From positions 1 to 51,040 of the IMG/VR virus record IMGVR_UViG_3300020410_000017: a stretch of DNA of 51,040 nucleotides; one strand, written 5' to 3'. Made by a program: the position numbers and the translations under genes. The DNA is from a virus. Taxonomy: Duplodnaviria; Caudoviricetes. Each line of letters opens with the position of its first letter. The first letter of the stretch is position 1. The notes under the pieces were generated by a model. The model was not told the origin of the DNA and made no database searches. It saw only the letters and a list, made by a program, of their open reading frames with translations. Below, piece after piece: positions 1 through 47,448 of this stretch.

Positions 1-142
1 CAAAAAAGAGCATAAAGGCAAAAATAACTAATAGGCACATGCTTCCCCTTTTGGTCGGGTGATAATGGTTTGGGCTTCCCCATCGCGTTGGCCGTGGTCT
101 TTAACCGTGGCCTTTAAAACGCCGTTAAAATCCTTAGTGAAC
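1..142. repeat. Terminal direct repeat, left copy (circular or terminally redundant contig)
   Basis: 1-142 matches 50899-51040 with two substitutions (49 T vs 50947 C; 88 T vs 50986 C). Confidence 0.95.
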
Positions 143-1324: not shown

Positions 1325-1614
1325 TTAGTGTTACTCGGCTGATTTTAAACGGTTTTTTATTTTGCGACCAACTGGTCATGGTTTGATGGGAGAGCCGTCT
1401 TTCTATGTACCTAATATATAAAGACTTTTTATAAGCAAAAAAAACAACTTTGGCACGCTTCTTGCGTACTGAACAGATGTTTAGCCATAAAAGTGTAAGT
1501 CTATATGCTACTTTTGCCATTTTGGCACAACTTTATGCAGTGTATGGTATTTTTACCGCATAAGGACTCGGCACCACTACCATGGCCGAAACCATGACCG
1601 AGTAGTCACGTTTT

Positions 1615-1667
1615 GAAAAAACTTTTAAAAGGGGGGACTGAAAAAAACTTTTAAAAGGGGGGGTCTG
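1615..1667. repeat. Two tandem copies of the polarised motif GAAAAAACTTTTAAAAGGGGGG
   Basis: Copies at 1615-1640 and 1640-1667; same motif at 45108, 45657, 47829, 48965, 50540. Confidence 0.85.
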
Positions 1668-1721
1668 AATTATTGATAGATCCCCATCGCCCCCAGCCTC
1701 CCGCAGCCGCCGAAATTGGCC

Positions 1722-1795
1722 GGCACGGATCGTGCTATTGCAAGCGCTATGCCAAACGCCTTGGCACGGATCGTGCTATTGCAAGCGCTATGCCA
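1722..1795. repeat. Perfect 33-bp direct repeat x2 with 8-bp spacer
   Basis: GGCACGGATCGTGCTATTGCAAGCGCTATGCCA at 1722-1754 and 1763-1795. Confidence 0.95.
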
Positions 1796-2150
1796 GCCCG
1801 TTTGGATCGAATTCTGCAAATGCAATTGGCATGCCAAAATCCCAGCCCCACCGCCGGCCAGCATGCCCGATGGGCTGCCGGTGCCCGATGTAGGCAATCG
1901 CCCACACCCGCCCACACTTGCCGCCCCTTTTCTATATATAGGGCCACGGCTGGCGCTCTTGCTTTGCTTTTTGTCGACGTGTGACGACGTCATTTGTTAC
2001 CCTTTTGCGCTTGGCCCTGGTTCGGGCCTGGTTTGGCTGGGATCGTGATCCCTGGCTTGGGATCAAATTTATCAGCTTTCGGCCCGATCTCCTACCGTTG
2101 GCCCAGATCTGACCCCCTCAAATTCGAGGTGCTAAGGGTGCTTAAACTGC

Positions 2151-2205
2151 TTTTTTTGTTTATTTGTGTTTTTATACTGACAAACGCTTTTCTGGTCCTT
2201 ATTGT
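2151..2205 (+). promoter_or_regulatory. Sigma70-type early promoter with T-rich UP-like element
   Basis: CTGACA(2177)-N17-TATTGT(2200), preceded by T-tracts; just upstream of the 2240 gene. Confidence 0.5.
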
Positions 2206-2239: not shown

Positions 2240-2668
2240 ATGAACACCGAAAAAACCATCACCCTTCACGATATCACTAACGCAACCGATGCTGAAATTG
2301 ATCAGCTCCTCGGCACCTCCGAGCCCGAGCCCGAGCCCCCCAAGGGCTCGGCAAATCCCTTTTGGGCTGGCGTTGAGGAAATGGCCGTGGCCGCCATGAC
2401 CAAAGCCCTTGTTGACGCTGGCAAGGGTTATGCAGCCCCCAGGGCTCTTGAGGCCTGGACCGGTCCCAAGAGCTGGAGCGGTCGCCAGGTGGTCAAGGCC
2501 TTTCACGGCATCGACTCGACCGGCGGGCACAACGGCTGCTTTGTTGTTGTCGTCGACCTCGAACACCCACGGGACGCGATTGACGAAACTTCCAGGGACT
2601 TCACCGGCTTCACCGTCACTGTCCTCAAAACTCGCGATCTTAAAATTCTCATTTACACCGCCGAATAA
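2240..2668 (+). CDS. Hypothetical protein (GC-rich island gene 1)
   Basis: 142 aa ORF; RBS AAGGA upstream. Confidence 0.75.
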   Translation: MNTEKTITLHDITNATDAEIDQLLGTSEPEPEPPKGSANPFWAGVEEMAVAAMTKALVDAGKGYAAPRALEAWTGPKSWSGRQVVKAFHGIDSTGGHNGCFVVVVDLEHPRDAIDETSRDFTGFTVTVLKTRDLKILIYTAE

Positions 2669-2669
2669 G

Positions 2670-2710
2670 CCCCAACCAAACACCAAACACAGCCCGCCGT
2701 CACGGCGGGC
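2670..2710 (+). repeat. Intergenic repeat unit with GC hairpin, copy 1
   Basis: CCCCAACCAAACACCAAACACAGCCCGCCGT identical to 3077-3107; GCCCGCC..GGCGGGC stem. Confidence 0.9.
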
Positions 2711-2725
2711 AAAGGAGCCCGAACC

Positions 2726-3076
2726 ATGACCACAGCCACCACACCCGCCGCCGCCACGATCCCCATTTACGCCACCGGTTACATTGAGATCGCCCGTCAC
2801 GGGCGGATCGTTTTAACCGTCCGCCCTGGCATGATCCACGGTCCCGAATTCGCCACCTTTACCATGGCGAATTCTTATGACCCCAGCGCTGGGGTTTACT
2901 GGGGACGATACACCCGAGGCGCTGCAACCGCTCTCTTGGCCTTTGCCGAGCGTGCTTACCTCCCGCATCACGAGGCGCTTGAACTCGCCGCAGCGGGCAT
3001 CCTGCGCCTTGCCAGGGTCAACGCCGTGGCTGCCGATACCCTTGAGGCGCTTTCCATCGATCTTTTGAGTTCCTAA
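2726..3076 (+). CDS. Hypothetical protein (island gene 2)
   Basis: 116 aa ORF; RBS AAGGAG. Confidence 0.75.
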   Translation: MTTATTPAAATIPIYATGYIEIARHGRIVLTVRPGMIHGPEFATFTMANSYDPSAGVYWGRYTRGAATALLAFAERAYLPHHEALELAAAGILRLARVNAVAADTLEALSIDLLSS

Positions 3077-3114
3077 CCCCAACCAAACACCAAACACAGC
3101 CCGCCGTGGCGGGC
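3077..3114 (+). repeat. Intergenic repeat unit with GC hairpin, copy 2
   Basis: 31 bp identical to 2670-2700, followed by GGCGGGC. Confidence 0.9.
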
Positions 3115-3133
3115 ATTTTGAAAGGCCAACACC

Positions 3134-3679
3134 ATGCAAACGAAGACAACACATCGCCCCCAATACACCACACGCGAGCGCCTCACGGTGACCCGCTTAT
3201 ATGCCCGCAATTACGGCGGGACGGCCACACCCGAAAGCCTTGAAGGCTGGGAGGCCTTGAGCGCCATGGTTCACCGCGCCGCCGTGGCTGTGTCTCAGTT
3301 GATGCGGATCGAGCGCAAGCTTCGCCGCCATTATGAGGACGCCGCCAACGGTTGGCCCACACCGATCCGCGAAACCCGTTTTGATGCCCAGGGCCGCCCA
3401 CGGGTCTTTACATACAGCATTGAAGACACAGATCGCCGCGCACGCTCCGAGGTTGCCACGGCCAAGCTTGAAGCCAAAGCCACCGCCCTTGCTGCTGAGT
3501 ACGGATTTGAGATTCGGATCAATTCCGACCCTCGAGGGGCCGCCATCAAGCTGAATGTGATTCCACAGCCCAACCCTAGCGCGGCTGATTCGATTGAATA
3601 TGCCGGCATGGACACCGATCTTCTTTGTGACGACGTGGGCCGCATCGAAGATCGCAATTCACGCCTTGTCAGCCAGTAA
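3134..3679 (+). CDS. Hypothetical phage protein (island gene 3)
   Basis: 181 aa; NSDPRGAAIKL resembles an N-x-D-P-R-G motif I recall from uncharacterised phage proteins. Confidence 0.75.
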   Translation: MQTKTTHRPQYTTRERLTVTRLYARNYGGTATPESLEGWEALSAMVHRAAVAVSQLMRIERKLRRHYEDAANGWPTPIRETRFDAQGRPRVFTYSIEDTDRRARSEVATAKLEAKATALAAEYGFEIRINSDPRGAAIKLNVIPQPNPSAADSIEYAGMDTDLLCDDVGRIEDRNSRLVSQ

Positions 3680-3707
3680 CCCCAACCCCCAGCAAAAGGA
3701 TCCAACC

Positions 3708-4157
3708 ATGACGAACCGAACCGAAATCGCCGCCTTGATCACTAACCTCCATGCCGCCCAAGCCCAGGCCATGGCCGCCGCCGTTGCCGTTGATGCTGCG
3801 CACGCTCGGCTTAAATCGCTGCAAGCCCCAAGCCCAGCCGAACGGGCTACGCTCCAAGCGCTTGACGCTCTCAAGGCCGCACACGAAGCCGTTGCCGATC
3901 TTGAGGGTGTTAAAAAGGACGTTTGCCCACGGTGGGCCCGCGCCCTTGGCCCTGGCCATAGCGTGTGCACGACTGCGGGAACCTTCTCAACGACCGAGCG
4001 CACCGCATGGAAAGGCGTTGCCCAAGAACTCTTGAACCAATGGGATCCCGTTGCGGCCCACAAGCTTGTTCAACGCCACACAAAGCCCAGCCACCGCCTA
4101 ACGATGGCCAAGCAACGCACCGCCCAAATCGCACACCTGGCACGCTTGGGGGCGTAG
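3708..4157 (+). CDS. Hypothetical Ala-rich coiled-coil protein (island gene 4)
   Basis: ATG 3708 after AAGGA RBS, inside listed ORF 3594-4157. Confidence 0.7.
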   Translation: MTNRTEIAALITNLHAAQAQAMAAAVAVDAAHARLKSLQAPSPAERATLQALDALKAAHEAVADLEGVKKDVCPRWARALGPGHSVCTTAGTFSTTERTAWKGVAQELLNQWDPVAAHKLVQRHTKPSHRLTMAKQRTAQIAHLARLGA

Positions 4158-4184
4158 CCACCGGCCACCGCTGCCAACGCCCCA

Positions 4185-4210
4185 GGGGCCCCAAATGGGG
4201 CCCTTTTTTT
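4185..4210 (+). terminator. Rho-independent terminator of the island operon
   Basis: GGGCCCCA-AA-TGGGGCCC stem followed by T-run. Confidence 0.8.
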
Positions 4211-4414
4211 GTGCCCTAGGCCACCGGCCACCCACCCACACCACGGCCACCACGGAGCTGCCCACAGCCCCACAGCCCACGGCAACCCCACACACAAGGC
4301 ACGCACGGCCCCCACAGAGGCCAAATTTGAATTTTGTTAGGATAGAGGGGCCCCCAGGGGGTGCCCTAGCCCCACCGAACGCCAAAATAACCCCTCATCA
4401 TATCCCACCTTTGA

Positions 4415-4660
4415 CTACACGGAGGAGTCGTCGATGATGACCTTGTTTTGAGTTTCAATCCACACCCGAGCGCCACACCCCAGCGGCTTGTGCGGACTAT
4501 AGATAACTCGCGCCGCCACGTCGCCACCGGAGTCAAGTATGATGGCCTGATACCCGTAGTCGTTGCTTTTGTATGTCTTAACCGTGAGCACGGGTTCGGG
4601 ATCTTTTTTGTTGATATTGCATCTTATTTTGTTTTGGTTGACGTGTATTATTGTTTTCAT
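4415..4660 (-). CDS. Conserved hypothetical phage protein
   Basis: HVNQNKIR...PVLTVKT...KPLGCGARVWIET motif of a widespread uncharacterised phage family; start at ATG 4660 after AGGGA. Confidence 0.8.
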   Translation of the reverse strand: MKTIIHVNQNKIRCNINKKDPEPVLTVKTYKSNDYGYQAIILDSGGDVAARVIYSPHKPLGCGARVWIETQNKVIIDDSSV

Positions 4661-5550: not shown

Positions 5551-5745
5551 ATGATTATCGGCTGCATTTTGTTTTTGTTGTTTTTCGGCGGCCTTCCGTG
5601 GGTATTGTTTTCGTATCTACCAATATGGGGCGCGATTCCGGTGAACTTGCTGGTGTCGGCATTTTTACTGTCTGCCGTCGCCAACAGCCGCAAGAAGTCC
5701 CAGCCGATGACCACCGAAGAAATCATCGCGCTGATGAAAAAGTAG
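5551..5745 (+). CDS. Small two-TM membrane protein
   Basis: 64 aa; two hydrophobic stretches; GGAG RBS. Confidence 0.6.
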   Translation: MIIGCILFLLFFGGLPWVLFSYLPIWGAIPVNLLVSAFLLSAVANSRKKSQPMTTEEIIALMKK

Positions 5746-5844
5746 CCTGCTCCCATCACAGACCTGTTGCTCACCATCGAGCAACCCACCCTCCATTGGC
5801 GGCTCGTCAGCCAGCCGGATTCCAACCAGGGACTTCATTTGGTA

Positions 5845-7008
5845 TTAGTTACAGTCAACCGCCAGCAGCGCTAAGATATCCTCAACCATCCACACCGATG
5901 GCCCCAGCAGTATTATTTCTCCGCCTGTGGGGTGAACTAGATCTTGGTAGTCACCAACAACGCCAACAATAGTAGCTGCATAAACAATAATACCAGCATC
6001 GATACACGCCGTAATAGCGTCTTGAACCGTGTTGCCTTCAATGCTCTGCGGTGCTTCATCCGAAAATACAATAATTGCTTTTGTCGAGTCTGTTCGCCAC
6101 GAGACTTCCGCACCGATACAGGTATTGTAAACGGCATCAATAGTCGGCTCAGAGCCTCCTCCAACACTTGAAACATTTGTAATAACCCCCTGAAAAGTTG
6201 CTGCATCCACAAGGTCGCTTATGAGCAACATGTTGCTGTATGTATAGGTTTCCGGCACCACGCCCCCAGGAACCCGAGCCGCACCAAAAAGACTGTCGGT
6301 GTCTTCCAGTGATCCGGCTATTCGATACGCAGTGGTTACGGACTCGCCGGTAAGGACTCCCATGGAGCCGCTCGCGTCAATGATAAAGAAAACATCGAAT
6401 TCTGACGACAAGTCTTCGTCAACAAACCCATCGCAATCATTATCTAGGCCATCGCAAATTTCTGTGGTTGGCACGCGCTCATACATGCACACAAGTTCGC
6501 CGCTCACGCACTCCATCATCCCTGCGCGGCATTCGCCATGGGCTAAAGTCTCAGGATCCGCAGTATAACAAAGCTCCATGCCATCAAGGTTATCAACCAG
6601 GCCGTCGCAATCATCATCGATGCCGTTACACTGCTCTGGTGATCCGTCTTCTCTTCCGTTACAGATTTTTTGTCCTTCATAACAAATCTCCCGTCCCGCT
6701 TGGCATGCTCCAACATCAATACCGCAAGCTTGACCCACCCACTCTTCGGCAATGTTGTTGTCCGTTGTGCCATCGCAATCATTATCGATCATGTCGCACA
6801 ATTCATCCTCGGGCGTTACCTGGCCCTCGCAATCAACCACAACGTCATTCTCGTCGCACAATGTCACCCCAGCCTCACAGATACCCTGTCCAGCCGTACC
6901 TGTGGGGCCAGTGTAACATGGCAAATTGCAGACACGGGAGACCATTACAATGTCATCATCGCATGCCTGCAAAAACATAAAAAACAATAAAAACAACACA
7001 GCTTTCAT
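5845..7008 (-). CDS. Lipoprotein with MopE-like Cys/Asp-rich repeats and C-terminal vWA domain
   Basis: Lipobox LQAC (Cys16); three E-x-C-[DN]-x-x-D-[ND]-D-C-D-G repeats; vWA MIDAS DASGS...T...SDE. Confidence 0.8.
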   Translation of the reverse strand: MKAVLFLLFFMFLQACDDDIVMVSRVCNLPCYTGPTGTAGQGICEAGVTLCDENDVVVDCEGQVTPEDELCDMIDNDCDGTTDNNIAEEWVGQACGIDVGACQAGREICYEGQKICNGREDGSPEQCNGIDDDCDGLVDNLDGMELCYTADPETLAHGECRAGMMECVSGELVCMYERVPTTEICDGLDNDCDGFVDEDLSSEFDVFFIIDASGSMGVLTGESVTTAYRIAGSLEDTDSLFGAARVPGGVVPETYTYSNMLLISDLVDAATFQGVITNVSSVGGGSEPTIDAVYNTCIGAEVSWRTDSTKAIIVFSDEAPQSIEGNTVQDAITACIDAGIIVYAATIVGVVGDYQDLVHPTGGEIILLGPSVWMVEDILALLAVDCN

Positions 7009-21974: not shown

Positions 21975-22180
21975 AGCAAGACGGCGAGCGCCAATTTCTG
22001 TTTTTCTTAGCAGAAACACTGGGCACCACCGTCAATGACTTGGCCGAGCGTCTATCCGTTTCAGAATTTTTGGAGTGGCACGAATACTTCAAAATAAAGA
22101 ATGAGGCGGAAAAGAAGGCCATGGATAAAGCAAAAGCCAAAAACAATACGCGCTCTCCTCGTTCATTTAGGAGGCGCTAA
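21965..22180 (+). CDS. -1 frameshift extension of the tail chaperone (gpGT-like)
   Basis: -1 frame reads LKQDGERQFLFFLAETLGTTVNDLAERLSVSEFLEWHEYF...RRR*, stop overlapping the TMP ATG. Confidence 0.8.
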   Translation, partial: KKLKQDGERQFLFFLAETLGTTVNDLAERLSVSEFLEWHEYFKIKNEAEKKAMDKAKAKNNTRSPRSFRRR

Positions 22181-44304: not shown

Positions 44305-44859
44305 TTAGACCTCATCATAGGTCATTGCTTGTTTCATTTTATCCAGTGCTTCTTTTCTTATCATTGAAACGCCTGACTCTGTAAGATTCATGCTTTCGCC
44401 AATCTTTTTAAGGGTGTCTCCCCTGTAAAAGCTCAGCCATATTATAGAGATTTCTCTGGCGCTTAACCTAGAAAAACCAAACGCCAGTAAAAGCCTTGTG
44501 TCCACGATATCAAAACCTCGTTCCCTGGTGGGGATTTCTGTGTTTTCAACGCAAAGGCTTTCGGTCATAGGGTCAAGATCCCTGATGACATCCCCAAGAT
44601 AAAGATCTTTGCGGTGGCCAATAATTTTCTTGGCCTTTCGCACTATACGATCTTTTTTTGGGTCTTCTCGACGGATACCATCTATAATGGCGTATTTAAT
44701 TTTCCACTGAGCGTAGCTCTCAAAGCTTATGTTGCTGTTTTCTGGAGAATAAGTTTCAACGGCTTTTTGATATCCGATCCACCCGTAGCCATACAGATCT
44801 CTTTTGTTGTGCGGCAATCTCATTCTCGCAACGGTTGCCCTTATAAGCCTCATCATCAT
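44305..44859 (-). CDS. Phage RNA polymerase sigma factor, FliA/WhiG (sigma28)-like
   Basis: Region 2 DL...G.IG...AV..Y......SF.SYA...I..AI.D..RR; region 4 LSARE..II.L.FY...TLKKIG..MNLTESGVS.I...AL.KMK. Confidence 0.85.
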   Translation of the reverse strand: MMMRLIRATVARMRLPHNKRDLYGYGWIGYQKAVETYSPENSNISFESYAQWKIKYAIIDGIRREDPKKDRIVRKAKKIIGHRKDLYLGDVIRDLDPMTESLCVENTEIPTRERGFDIVDTRLLLAFGFSRLSAREISIIWLSFYRGDTLKKIGESMNLTESGVSMIRKEALDKMKQAMTYDEV

Positions 44860-45059
44860 AACAGCGCATGCCTTTCCGCGAAACATTTCGCCAAGGCCAG
44901 CGAATGATGACAGCAAAGATAATCCCATCCGCGCCCGCTGTTGCGATAAACCCAGAAACTCTTGGCCGTCGCTTCATAAATTCTATACTGACAGCCCATG
45001 ATCGATGCCGCCGCACAGCCCTTATCTGTTTTTATGTTTTGCCACGCTGTTAAGGTCAT
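44856..45059 (-). CDS. Hypothetical protein
   Basis: 67 aa; ATGA-coupled to the sigma gene. Confidence 0.5.
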   Translation of the reverse strand: MTLTAWQNIKTDKGCAAASIMGCQYRIYEATAKSFWVYRNSGRGWDYLCCHHSLALAKCFAERHALL

Positions 45060-46253: not shown

Positions 46254-46624
46254 ATAATCGCCACCAGGCCCAATGCCTCAGCGGCCTCGGATGCGCATAT
46301 GGCATTAAAAAGATCTTCATCGGTCTTCACGTCATCGTATTTTTTAAGGTCTGCGATTGAAAATTTTTCATAAAGGGGGGTCATGCAGAACCCATCTTTA
46401 TGCTTGAAAAGGCCATAGGTGACGCTTCGCACGCCCAGACCGGAAGTGTCACGCCATGCCCGAAGATGGGCTACCAATTCTTCATCGTCGCAGGGCTCAA
46501 AGGCAAAGTCTGGTATGCCCACACAGCCGCGCACGATAACCCAGCCCAAGTCATCGACCTCAACCGAGTCCATGTTTGGCGTGCGCCACCGAAGGCCCGT
46601 CCATTCTGCAAACTCTAACCCCAT
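46250..46624 (-). CDS. Hypothetical protein
   Basis: Start uncertain within ORF 46250-46681. Confidence 0.55.
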   Translation of the reverse strand: MGLEFAEWTGLRWRTPNMDSVEVDDLGWVIVRGCVGIPDFAFEPCDDEELVAHLRAWRDTSGLGVRSVTYGLFKHKDGFCMTPLYEKFSIADLKKYDDVKTDEDLFNAICASEAAEALGLVAII

Positions 46625-47448
46625 CGGCTCTTGTCCATGCATTTTTTTATTTTTTGAATAACAGTGTCCGGCTTGGCGCAAACGTCAGGCTCGTGATCGA
46701 TGGCGCTCCAAACCTCATACTGTCGACCCCAATCGCCGTAAGGGAAAGTGCAATGGCCACGCGAGCCCCAATTGTACCCCCATGAATTTCGTATCTGAAA
46801 GCCGTGAAGATCCCAGCCAACAACGGCCATGGCATGGCCGCCCATCTTTTTGTAACCCTGCTCTTTGATCCACATGCGTGAAGGTATGATATATTTTTGG
46901 TGCTCTACGGTTGACGATCCGGTCCACGGTTTTGCATAAACCGGCACCACGATAACACATGGGCCATTAAGGTAAATTGCGCGTTTGGTATCCTGAACAG
47001 TCGTACACTTCGCGAAGCCTTGAATGCGATAAAACTCGGCTTCTTTTTTTAGCTCCGAAGCCATCTTTTTTAGCCCGATGGGCGGTGTGTCTTTCCCTTG
47101 ACGGTAAGGATACGACTTTTCCAGCGGTGCGCCATGTACACGCAAAAATTTCAGGGCATTGCGAACATTCATGCCACGCCCAGATCGGTTTTTTGGGCGG
47201 CAGTCGTAAATAAACTGTGGGCTCAGATAACCTTTATCCAGCAAATGTTTAAGGTTGTTTCGCTCTTGCATCGCCGCAAGGGACTGGGCCACGCATGACC
47301 CTTGTGGCCCCTGGTTGCGGATTCCAAACATATCCTCCCTTAAAGAAAAACTTTCAGGAAGGGGGGGCCTTGTTGCCACTGCTTGATCAAAAAGAAGATC
47401 GCGTTCATCGTAGGGCGATGCCGCGATCATAAAATCTGGATTTTTCAA
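46615..47448 (-). CDS. Papain-like (C1A) cysteine protease
   Basis: NQGPQGSC, LSPQFIY, GGHAM.VVGWD, IRNSWG..WG.RG; catalytic Q/C/H/N present. Confidence 0.9.
   Translation of the reverse strand: MKNPDFMIAASPYDERDLLFDQAVATRPPLPESFSLREDMFGIRNQGPQGSCVAQSLAAMQERNNLKHLLDKGYLSPQFIYDCRPKNRSGRGMNVRNALKFLRVHGAPLEKSYPYRQGKDTPPIGLKKMASELKKEAEFYRIQGFAKCTTVQDTKRAIYLNGPCVIVVPVYAKPWTGSSTVEHQKYIIPSRMWIKEQGYKKMGGHAMAVVGWDLHGFQIRNSWGYNWGSRGHCTFPYGDWGRQYEVWSAIDHEPDVCAKPDTVIQKIKKCMDKSRWG

Follow-up and report, generated by a model that had tools for sequence, protein, structure and literature searches.

Mirror-paired sigma-54-type sites in the control region of a phage from marine metagenomes, a candidate docking platform for host sigma-54

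Why would a phage lineage maintain seven -24/-12 elements of the sigma-54 type in its replication and early-control gap? The question is raised by the viral record IMGVR_UViG_3300020410_000017 (Caudoviricetes; IMG/VR), whose entire 51,040 bp form the window analysed here (G000). The sites are located in a 1.36-kb non-coding gap (877-2239) between divergently transcribed operons, and six of them face each other in pairs within a short tandem array. Judged by their sequence, these motifs are sigma-54-type sites of promoter quality, and they occur at a frequency far above chance. It is probable that they are genuine docking sites for sigma-54 whose recognition is under selection. Below, the sites and their statistics are described, followed by their conservation in related phages, their recurrence in other viral contigs and the ways in which they might be used.

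Sigma-54-type sites in the gap and their expected frequency

Sites were scored with a position weight matrix (PWM) made from hand-tallied base counts of the 27 Salmonella intergenic sites from chromatin immunoprecipitation on microarrays (ChIP-chip) given in Table 3 of PMC3844500. Sites sampled from this matrix have a median score of 15.8 bits, which served as the benchmark. The single-copy site TGGCACGCTTCTTGCG (1451-1466, plus strand) scored 16.8 bits. The other six sites, on both strands, make up a three-unit tandem array with a 41-nt period (1721-1843), whose units start at 1721, 1762 and 1803. Unit 1 consists of the plus half CGGCACGGATCGTGCT (1721-1736, 10.9 bits) and the minus half TGGCATAGCGCTTGCA (1739-1754, 15.5 bits). 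Unit 2 pairs the plus half TGGCACGGATCGTGCT (1762-1777, 16.7 bits) with a second copy of the minus half TGGCATAGCGCTTGCA (1780-1795, 15.5 bits). Unit 3 has a degenerate plus half, TGGATCGAATTCTGCA (1803-1818, 9.4 bits), with GG-N10-GC intact, and the minus half TGGCATGCCAATTGCA (1821-1836, 19.3 bits), the top site of the genome. The initial annotation had reported six motifs with exact GG-N10-GC spacing, all of which were recovered at the positions and on the strands given above; the seventh, 1803-1818, was absent from its list. Five of the seven sites score 15.5-19.3 bits, comparable to the true-site median, and five of the seven carry the extended consensus TGGCAY-N5-TTGCW at real-site strength.

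The anatomy of the array changes how these sites should be counted. Identities among the units are 100, 88 and 63%, and each unit is an imperfect 34-bp palindrome in which a plus and a minus site face each other with their -12 ends 2 nt apart. Four of the six originally listed sites derive from one duplicated 33-nt unit. The description as six separate sites therefore had to be revised: positions 1721-1843 are one 41-nt tandem repeat of three units, and sites that share one repeat are not independent events. The predicted start points, 11-12 nt past the -12 GC, fall within the partner site, so the two transcripts of a unit would diverge. Holoenzyme footprint sizes underlie what can be said about occupancy, both here and for the tight packing considered below. 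Given these sizes, two holoenzymes probably could not occupy one unit simultaneously, and since facing sites would overlap sterically, the array would accommodate about four holoenzymes at most instead of six. Genes in co-orientation flank it on both sides, the nearest at 400-860 nt.

Chance was assessed with first-order Markov simulations. Genome-wide, six sites reached at least 15 bits against 0.96 expected, and none of 200 simulations reached six. Five of these six fall inside 1451-1836 (386 nt); the sixth, at 22076, lacks the GC and lies in a coding stretch conserved in all three related phages described below. In the gap itself (877-2239), five sites of at least 15 bits were found against 0.026 expected, with a maximum of two in 2000 simulation runs, and three were still left when one repeat copy was deleted. 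The local enrichment that the initial annotation had proposed to test with an RpoN matrix holds against simulated controls. Eleven loci of more distant phages (108,795 nt in total), taken as a negative control, contained no site of at least 14.5 bits. Two simpler counts were less informative. The bare GG-N10-GC pattern occurred 10 times in the segment versus 3.6 at the genome rate, only about 3-fold, and is by itself weak evidence. The genome-wide count of TGGCAYRNNNNTTGCW with up to one mismatch was five, a number reached by 16 of 100 shuffles and not significant alone. The signal resides in clustering together with site quality.

Conservation in related phages and recurrence in other viral contigs

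The search for relatives yielded two genomes. One, G001, is a 51,039-bp IMG/VR contig whose left-flank protein is 80% identical to that of G000; a metagenome scan returned two loci, one of them (L008) 100% identical to G001 and the other designated L009. G002 has 53,289 bp, a 90% identical terminase and gap DNA of about 62% identity. Further searching with the left-flank protein gave G001 only, the right-flank protein gave none, and two DNA-pattern scans returned already-known relatives only (G001; G002). A blastn search of the phage against isolate phages gave no match, and in three terminase relatives of G000 (136 kb) a single site reached 13 bits and arrays were absent. Contigs from four DNA runs covering 900-2300 were identical except for A>C at 1477 in one run.

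Both relatives retain the 1451 site as TGGCACGATTCTTGCG, which scores 17.6 bits (G001 84-99, minus strand; G002 1888-1903, plus strand), and its orientation is conserved in all three phages. The segment TTTGGCACG(A/C)TTCTTGCG is retained in the three phages amid flanks of about 60% identity. The gap of G002 also has a leftward site at 2269-2284 (16.7 bits). In addition, G002 carries a homologous array of three units in the same 41-nt register (4434-4556), in non-coding DNA downstream of its non-homologous right operon. Two of its units are pairs, TGGTCC..TTGCA with TGGCACCGATCTTGCA (3 nt between the halves) and TGGCATGAACCTTGCA with GGGTAT..TTGCA (4 nt), and the third is a lone minus half, TGGCACGGAACTTGCA. 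Local alignment of the G000 and G002 arrays scored 19 in forward and 26 in reverse-complement orientation, compared with a mean of 9.7 and a maximum of 17 for shuffles. Of the six units of the two phages, five have a strong minus half and three a plus half of at least 10.9 bits; every unit has a strong half, and the strand of the strong half varies. Presence in both G000 and G002 implies that the array predates their split and was lost or replaced in G001.

Counted over the phages, exact GG-N10-GC spacing holds at all seven sites in G000, at one in G001 and at seven in G002. The initial annotation had looked to relatives for arrays that keep this spacing while their spacers diverge; this is what G002 shows, and G001 has no array. 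The gap between halves is 2, 2 and 2 nt in G000 versus 3 and 4 nt in G002, with GG-N10-GC fixed and the spacers diverged. A fixed half-site spacing, as expected of an operator or iteron of a dimeric protein, is not seen. Fixed spacing within sites and drift between halves argue against a single dimeric operator, and the pattern of conservation is that expected of two independent sigma-54-type sites. The right operon is a non-homologous cassette in each phage (2240-4157 in G000; 2600-4242 in G002). Seen from the array, this operon is on the right in G000 and on the left in G002, an arrangement that cassette swapping on both sides could produce. Positions 4300-4410 of G002, between the right-operon terminator and the array, hold a tandem repeat of the CGTTCGT type.

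Recurrence was examined by scanning IMG/VR for two perfect consensus sites 20-30 nt apart. At least 119 stretches matched, versus one for a reversed-pattern control. With the arrays masked, the 119 loci listed fell into 50 DNA-similarity groups, one of which has 59 members. Among these 50 groups, 36 have arrays of at least three sites, 23 have arrays of at least five, and 21 contain a facing pair 0-6 nt apart, the mirror-pair unit. In the listed viral arrays, 91 of 112 plus-then-minus neighbour pairs were 1-5 nt apart. Same-strand spacing had its mode at 27-29 nt (56 adjacent same-strand pairs), and a second same-strand peak at 36-38 nt is partly imposed by the query. The motif of the listed arrays, a matrix-selected set, matches sigma-54 at every conserved position, including the C/T and G/A ratios at positions 6 and 7 and the T before TGG. 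The groups listed span a GC content of 0.32-0.64, and none of the 853 proteins encoded within 3 kb of the listed arrays is shared with G000 (E<=1e-4). Recurrence of the design without a shared neighbouring protein points to a host factor as the common denominator.

Gene orientation around these arrays was scored from crude ORF (open reading frame) calls. In co-directional contexts the majority strand of the array agreed with the genes in 12 cases, opposed them in 11 and was tied in three; counted by site, 60 agreed and 56 opposed. On the contig L062 (147,530 bp), 40 sites reach 13 bits or more within 6.5 kb, and a run of 25 sigma-54-like sites at 5660-6445 is organised in one-strand blocks of 5-10 with 27-29-nt spacing, the strand switching between blocks. 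In the 59-locus group (L058, L090, L100, L102 and others) the arrays stand between a leftward early module and an operon encoding an AT-hook protein, an M15 endolysin, the large terminase and the portal. They lie a median of 265 nt from the gene for the AT-hook protein of about 130 aa (35 loci), upstream of it in the gene maps inspected. A blastn search of two arrays against isolate phages gave no match, and the main-family terminase is at most 42% identical to any isolate.

Activator searches and the surrounding genome

Searches for a phage-encoded activator were negative. The enhancer-binding ATPase domain PF00158 gave no match above cut-off in G000, G001 or G002, the best match in G000 (11.1 bits versus a cut-off of 20.2) lying within the SF2 helicase ORF. 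The absence of a recognisable activator, put forward in the initial annotation, is thereby confirmed for this genome. The same domain was found above cut-off in none of 40 other array-bearing records, of which 13 were at least 90% complete, and thus in none of 43 records with the trio included. Sigma54_DBD was absent from G000 and G001 and from the 40 other array-bearing records; G002 was not searched for it. No enhancer for sigma-54 was recognised. The phage does encode a sigma factor of its own, as the initial annotation had noted: it belongs to the sigma-70 family, has regions 2 and 4 and extends over 44305-44928 on the minus strand. The proposed link between this factor and the array found little echo elsewhere, with Sigma70_r4 matches in five of the 40 other array-bearing records, one of them above cut-off. 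As the target of this factor the array was rejected on geometry, a sigma-70-family spacing of about 17 nt being required.

The source DNA runs that contain the phage sequence are marine metagenomes. The genome encodes a large terminase, a major head protein, an amidase endolysin, a YqaJ/RecT recombination pair, an SF2 helicase, a DUF927 primase-helicase, a DNA methylase and, at 46615-47448 on the minus strand, a papain-family (Peptidase_C1) cysteine protease (E = 2e-19). No tRNA genes and no recognisable phage RNA polymerase were found in it. A tyrosine integrase is absent from all three related phages, and a reading of the region as an attP or recombinase site was rejected on this ground. The only host hint comes from a lipoprotein (5845-7008, minus strand) that combines a VWA domain with Cys-rich repeats of the MopE type. 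Nearly all of the 19 relatives of this protein, at 30-46% identity, come from Myxococcota metagenome-assembled genomes. Homologues of the phage sigma factor (n = 7) gave no host indication.

To the left, the gap is bounded by the leftward gene of a 282-aa zinc-ribbon-like protein (28-876) and to the right by the rightward GC-rich operon of four to five genes that starts at 2240. The right operon (2240-4157) has 57-60% GC versus 49% genome-wide, and the 3' end of its last gene contains TGGCACGCTTGGGGGCG (4136-4152), whose first 10 nt are those of the 1451 site and whose own spacing is 11 nt, possibly a chance likeness. A coding explanation of the gap was discarded, as ORFs within 877-2239 are not conserved in the relatives; the apparently non-coding location given in the initial annotation stands. 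An RNA element was likewise discarded: Rfam returned a single sub-threshold match (RF01098, 21.4 bits versus a gathering score of 70), and the folds of 1700-1850 and 1477-1700 were unremarkable (z = -0.29 and -1.71).

Several other elements share the gap with the sigma-54-type sites. In an origin-like region (1013-1324), nine GATCCAC iterons, some in each orientation, surround an AT-rich core at about 1150-1290, with inverted repeats; GATCCAC occurs 15 times in the genome versus 4.76 expected, and nine of the 15 copies fall in this region. The iterons differ among the phages, being GATCCAC in G000, TGTGGCAA in G001 and GTTACAA in G002 (1480-1790), with the architecture retained; this change looks like that of an origin with switched initiator specificity. 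A conserved palindromic box, TTGCCA-N3-TGGCA (1512-1534), includes the near miss at 1523, with its 11-nt spacing, that was flagged in the initial annotation. In G002 the box has lost the GG (TTGACA) and hence is not conserved as a sigma-54 site. The three phages agree fully in the box GGTATTTTTACC (1546-1557). They also all keep AAAAAACTTTTAAAAGGGGGG, which is present twice (1616-1636 and 1642-1662), between the rightward 1451 site and the leftward halves of the array. The 20-nt core of AAAAAACTTTTAAAAGGGGGG was found on one other IMG/VR contig only, G002, and AAAAAACTTTTAAAAGGGGGG also appears on contigs of other organisms in two marine DNA runs. The block from about 1930 to 2240 is 81% identical to G001. 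Within it, a sigma-70-type promoter, CTGACA-17-TATTGT (2177-2205, plus strand), stands 35 nt before the ATG of the right operon (2240) and is conserved in G001, which has no array. The starts of all three related contigs fall less than 2 kb from this control region, and physical genome ends might be nearby. In G001 the contig start is 84 nt away from the conserved site; the terminal repeat of 77 nt in this contig may simply reflect an assembly overlap.

Docking platform, promoters or another DNA-binding protein

The sigma-54 closed complex cannot start transcription alone. Since the phage encodes neither sigma-54 nor an AAA+ enhancer-binding protein, sigma-54 of the host, whether free or in the holoenzyme, would be expected to dock at the array in the form of an inactive closed complex. 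The array would then be a docking or parking platform that keeps sigma-54 or its holoenzyme on phage DNA. Such a platform could serve as a sink, as a barrier within the control region, or in both ways; that a host activator fires it is possible but secondary. Binding, mutual exclusion of the unit halves and any physiological effect are predictions. That the array acts mainly by occupancy, independently of orientation, and not by directional transcription is a tentative reading, somewhat short of an even bet, and we lean towards it over activator-gated promoters. Several observations are consistent with it. The unit was recently duplicated exactly, and a strong half is kept in each unit on either strand. 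The loss of the array in G001 suggests a role of this kind, as do the right operon's own sigma-70-type promoter and the distance of 400-860 nt to the genes. In the other viral arrays, the 27-29-nt same-strand spacing is probably tighter than two holoenzymes can occupy. The lack of an encoded activator in all 43 records counts on the same side, as does the even split of orientations in co-directional contexts (12 vs 11 arrays, 60 vs 56 sites), scored from crude ORF calls.

A number of results weigh against this interpretation. G001, the closest relative, has no array, with no other site at up to one mismatch, which means that the array is dispensable. Minus halves are better kept than plus halves (5/6 vs 3/6), which fits three tandem leftward promoters. 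Divergent intergenic contexts, a typical promoter location, account for 13 of 33 groups. Two of five hand-checked 'opposed' cases proved to be coding repeats, and the orientation count depends on crude ORF calls; an ORF call of 60 aa or more encloses 39 of the 91 arrays, and many such calls are probably spurious. The set was retrieved with the consensus, so the purity of its motif is partly circular. Finally, two of 301 sampled bacterial genomes (one phylum, that of G045) also match the tandem pattern, so no viral enrichment over bacteria is claimed. In both (L173, 1501-1638; L174), a gene is preceded at about 80 nt by three sites on one strand. These bacterial sites score 17-20 bits, lie in a divergent intergenic region and resemble ordinary tandem promoters.

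The most serious competitor is that the sites are ordinary activator-gated sigma-54 promoters, the mirror pair being a compact bidirectional promoter. Depending on an active enhancer-binding protein of the host, as for instance during starvation, the array would then feed the divergent operons or drive transcription towards the iteron origin. Consensus-quality sites in a gap between divergent operons, a 1451 site conserved with its orientation in three phages and minus halves kept in five of six units count in favour of such promoters, and the divergent viral contexts and the bacterial tandem sites fit as well. The initial annotation had judged ordinary promoter use unlikely for overlapping convergent sites with no adjacent ORF; given sites between divergent operons and bacterial tandem sites at about 80 nt from a gene, that argument was too strong. 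Phage YuA, with three active -24/-12 promoters annotated (AM749441), offers a precedent, albeit a weaker one, as these promoters have no plus-strand site of at least 9 bits in our matrix. Yet no activator is encoded in the 43 records and no enhancer was recognised, 400-860 nt separate the array from the nearest genes, and a conserved sigma-70-type promoter precedes the right operon. Co-directional contexts show no orientation bias (12 vs 11), the 27-29-nt tandem spacing of other arrays is very tight, and G001 manages without the array. On balance we regard promoters as possible but doubtful.

A different DNA-binding protein, with a resemblance to sigma-54 sites only, is distinctly improbable. 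Such a protein might come from the phage and act in replication, packaging or partition, or it might be a regulator of the host that binds direct TGGCA/TTGCA half-sites one helical turn apart. The array does adjoin an iteron origin and other conserved palindromes, the contigs of the trio start less than 2 kb from the region, and in the 59-locus group the arrays lie near the AT-hook gene that heads the endolysin-terminase-portal operon, a position typical of packaging sites. Such a protein would nevertheless have to explain a match to sigma-54 at every conserved position, though in a matrix-selected set, and a motif common to 50 groups across a GC content of 0.32-0.64 with no common neighbouring protein. 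It would also have to tolerate a variable spacing between halves (2, 3 and 4 nt) with a fixed spacing within sites, and no Sigma54_DBD-like protein is encoded in G000, G001 or the 40 other records. As for the idea that one palindromic unit resembles sigma-54 sites by chance and was multiplied by tandem duplication, the duplicated 33-nt unit that yields four of the six listed sites and the shuffles that match the count at up to one mismatch (16/100) speak in its favour. Against it stand the three independent sites of at least 15 bits left after deletion of one copy, where 0.026 are expected, the conservation of sites in G001 and G002, and the recurrence of the design in other viral contigs. Pure chance is close to excluded for the sites.

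The docking platform allows a more far-reaching version, which we consider unlikely as it stands. Mirror-paired arrays could be a widespread, protein-free phage device, a DNA-based anti-sigma that soaks up the small host pool of sigma-54 as dead-end closed complexes, much as the initial annotation had imagined. A replicating array might then silence the RpoN regulon with its stress, repair, motility and development functions. In a sister version, a phage factor may unlock the docked polymerase without an AAA+ activator.

To our knowledge, sigma-54 promoters are textbook elements that phages are hardly known to use. The control regions of phages P2 and 186 have face-to-face promoters that interfere with each other; these are sigma-70 promoters, tens of bp apart and single, in contrast to -12 boxes 2-4 nt apart in a repeated array. 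Titration has precedents in the datA locus for DnaA, in the handcuffing and titration of plasmid iterons and in 6S RNA, a decoy of the sigma-70 holoenzyme. In these systems many high-affinity sites or mimics keep a factor from its normal targets, and the phage array, with its number and quality of sites, might work alike. We know of no DNA decoy for a sigma factor or its holoenzyme.

Compared with bacterial -24/-12 promoters, the phage sites score at or above the ChIP-site median. The intergenic ChIP-supported sites tabulated for Salmonella follow TGGCAY-N5-TTGCW with fixed GG-N10-GC (PMC3844500). The phage sites differ in being phage-borne, without an identified enhancer-binding protein or enhancer, and in forming mirror pairs in a 41-nt array with genes 400-860 nt away. 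Intragenic sigma-54 binding without an obvious transcription unit has been reported in Salmonella and E. coli, and roles in repression or interference, or roles linked to small RNA (sRNA), have been proposed by the authors (PMC3844500, PMC4591121). Such sites are single, scattered and weaker, whereas those of the phage form an intergenic cluster of consensus grade. A preprint describes Pseudomonas phage YuA as sigma-54-dependent (bioRxiv 10.1101/2023.10.13.562163). Like G000, YuA has no RNA polymerase of its own and carries host sigma-54-type promoters. Its three sites (AM749441) are single and precede structural genes, none reaches 9 bits on the coding strand, and there are no arrays or mirror pairs. 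The titles and abstracts listed by literature searches mentioned no arrays of sigma-54 sites and no mirror-paired sites in phages; supplementary promoter sets (e.g., PMC12316311) might hold some.

The mirror-paired array, recurring in many unrelated viral contigs, looks like a widespread and undescribed way of engaging sigma-54 polymerase. If the sites bind sigma-54, the trio and at least 21 other viral contig groups carry a compact 34-36-bp unit with no activator encoded, and the form of polymerase engaged would be one unable to fire alone. The unit would then be a ready-made part for synthetic biology and a marker predicting rpoN in the host of a phage. Either outcome would be new phage biology: bidirectional promoters gated by the state of the host, or a DNA sink or barrier for sigma-54.

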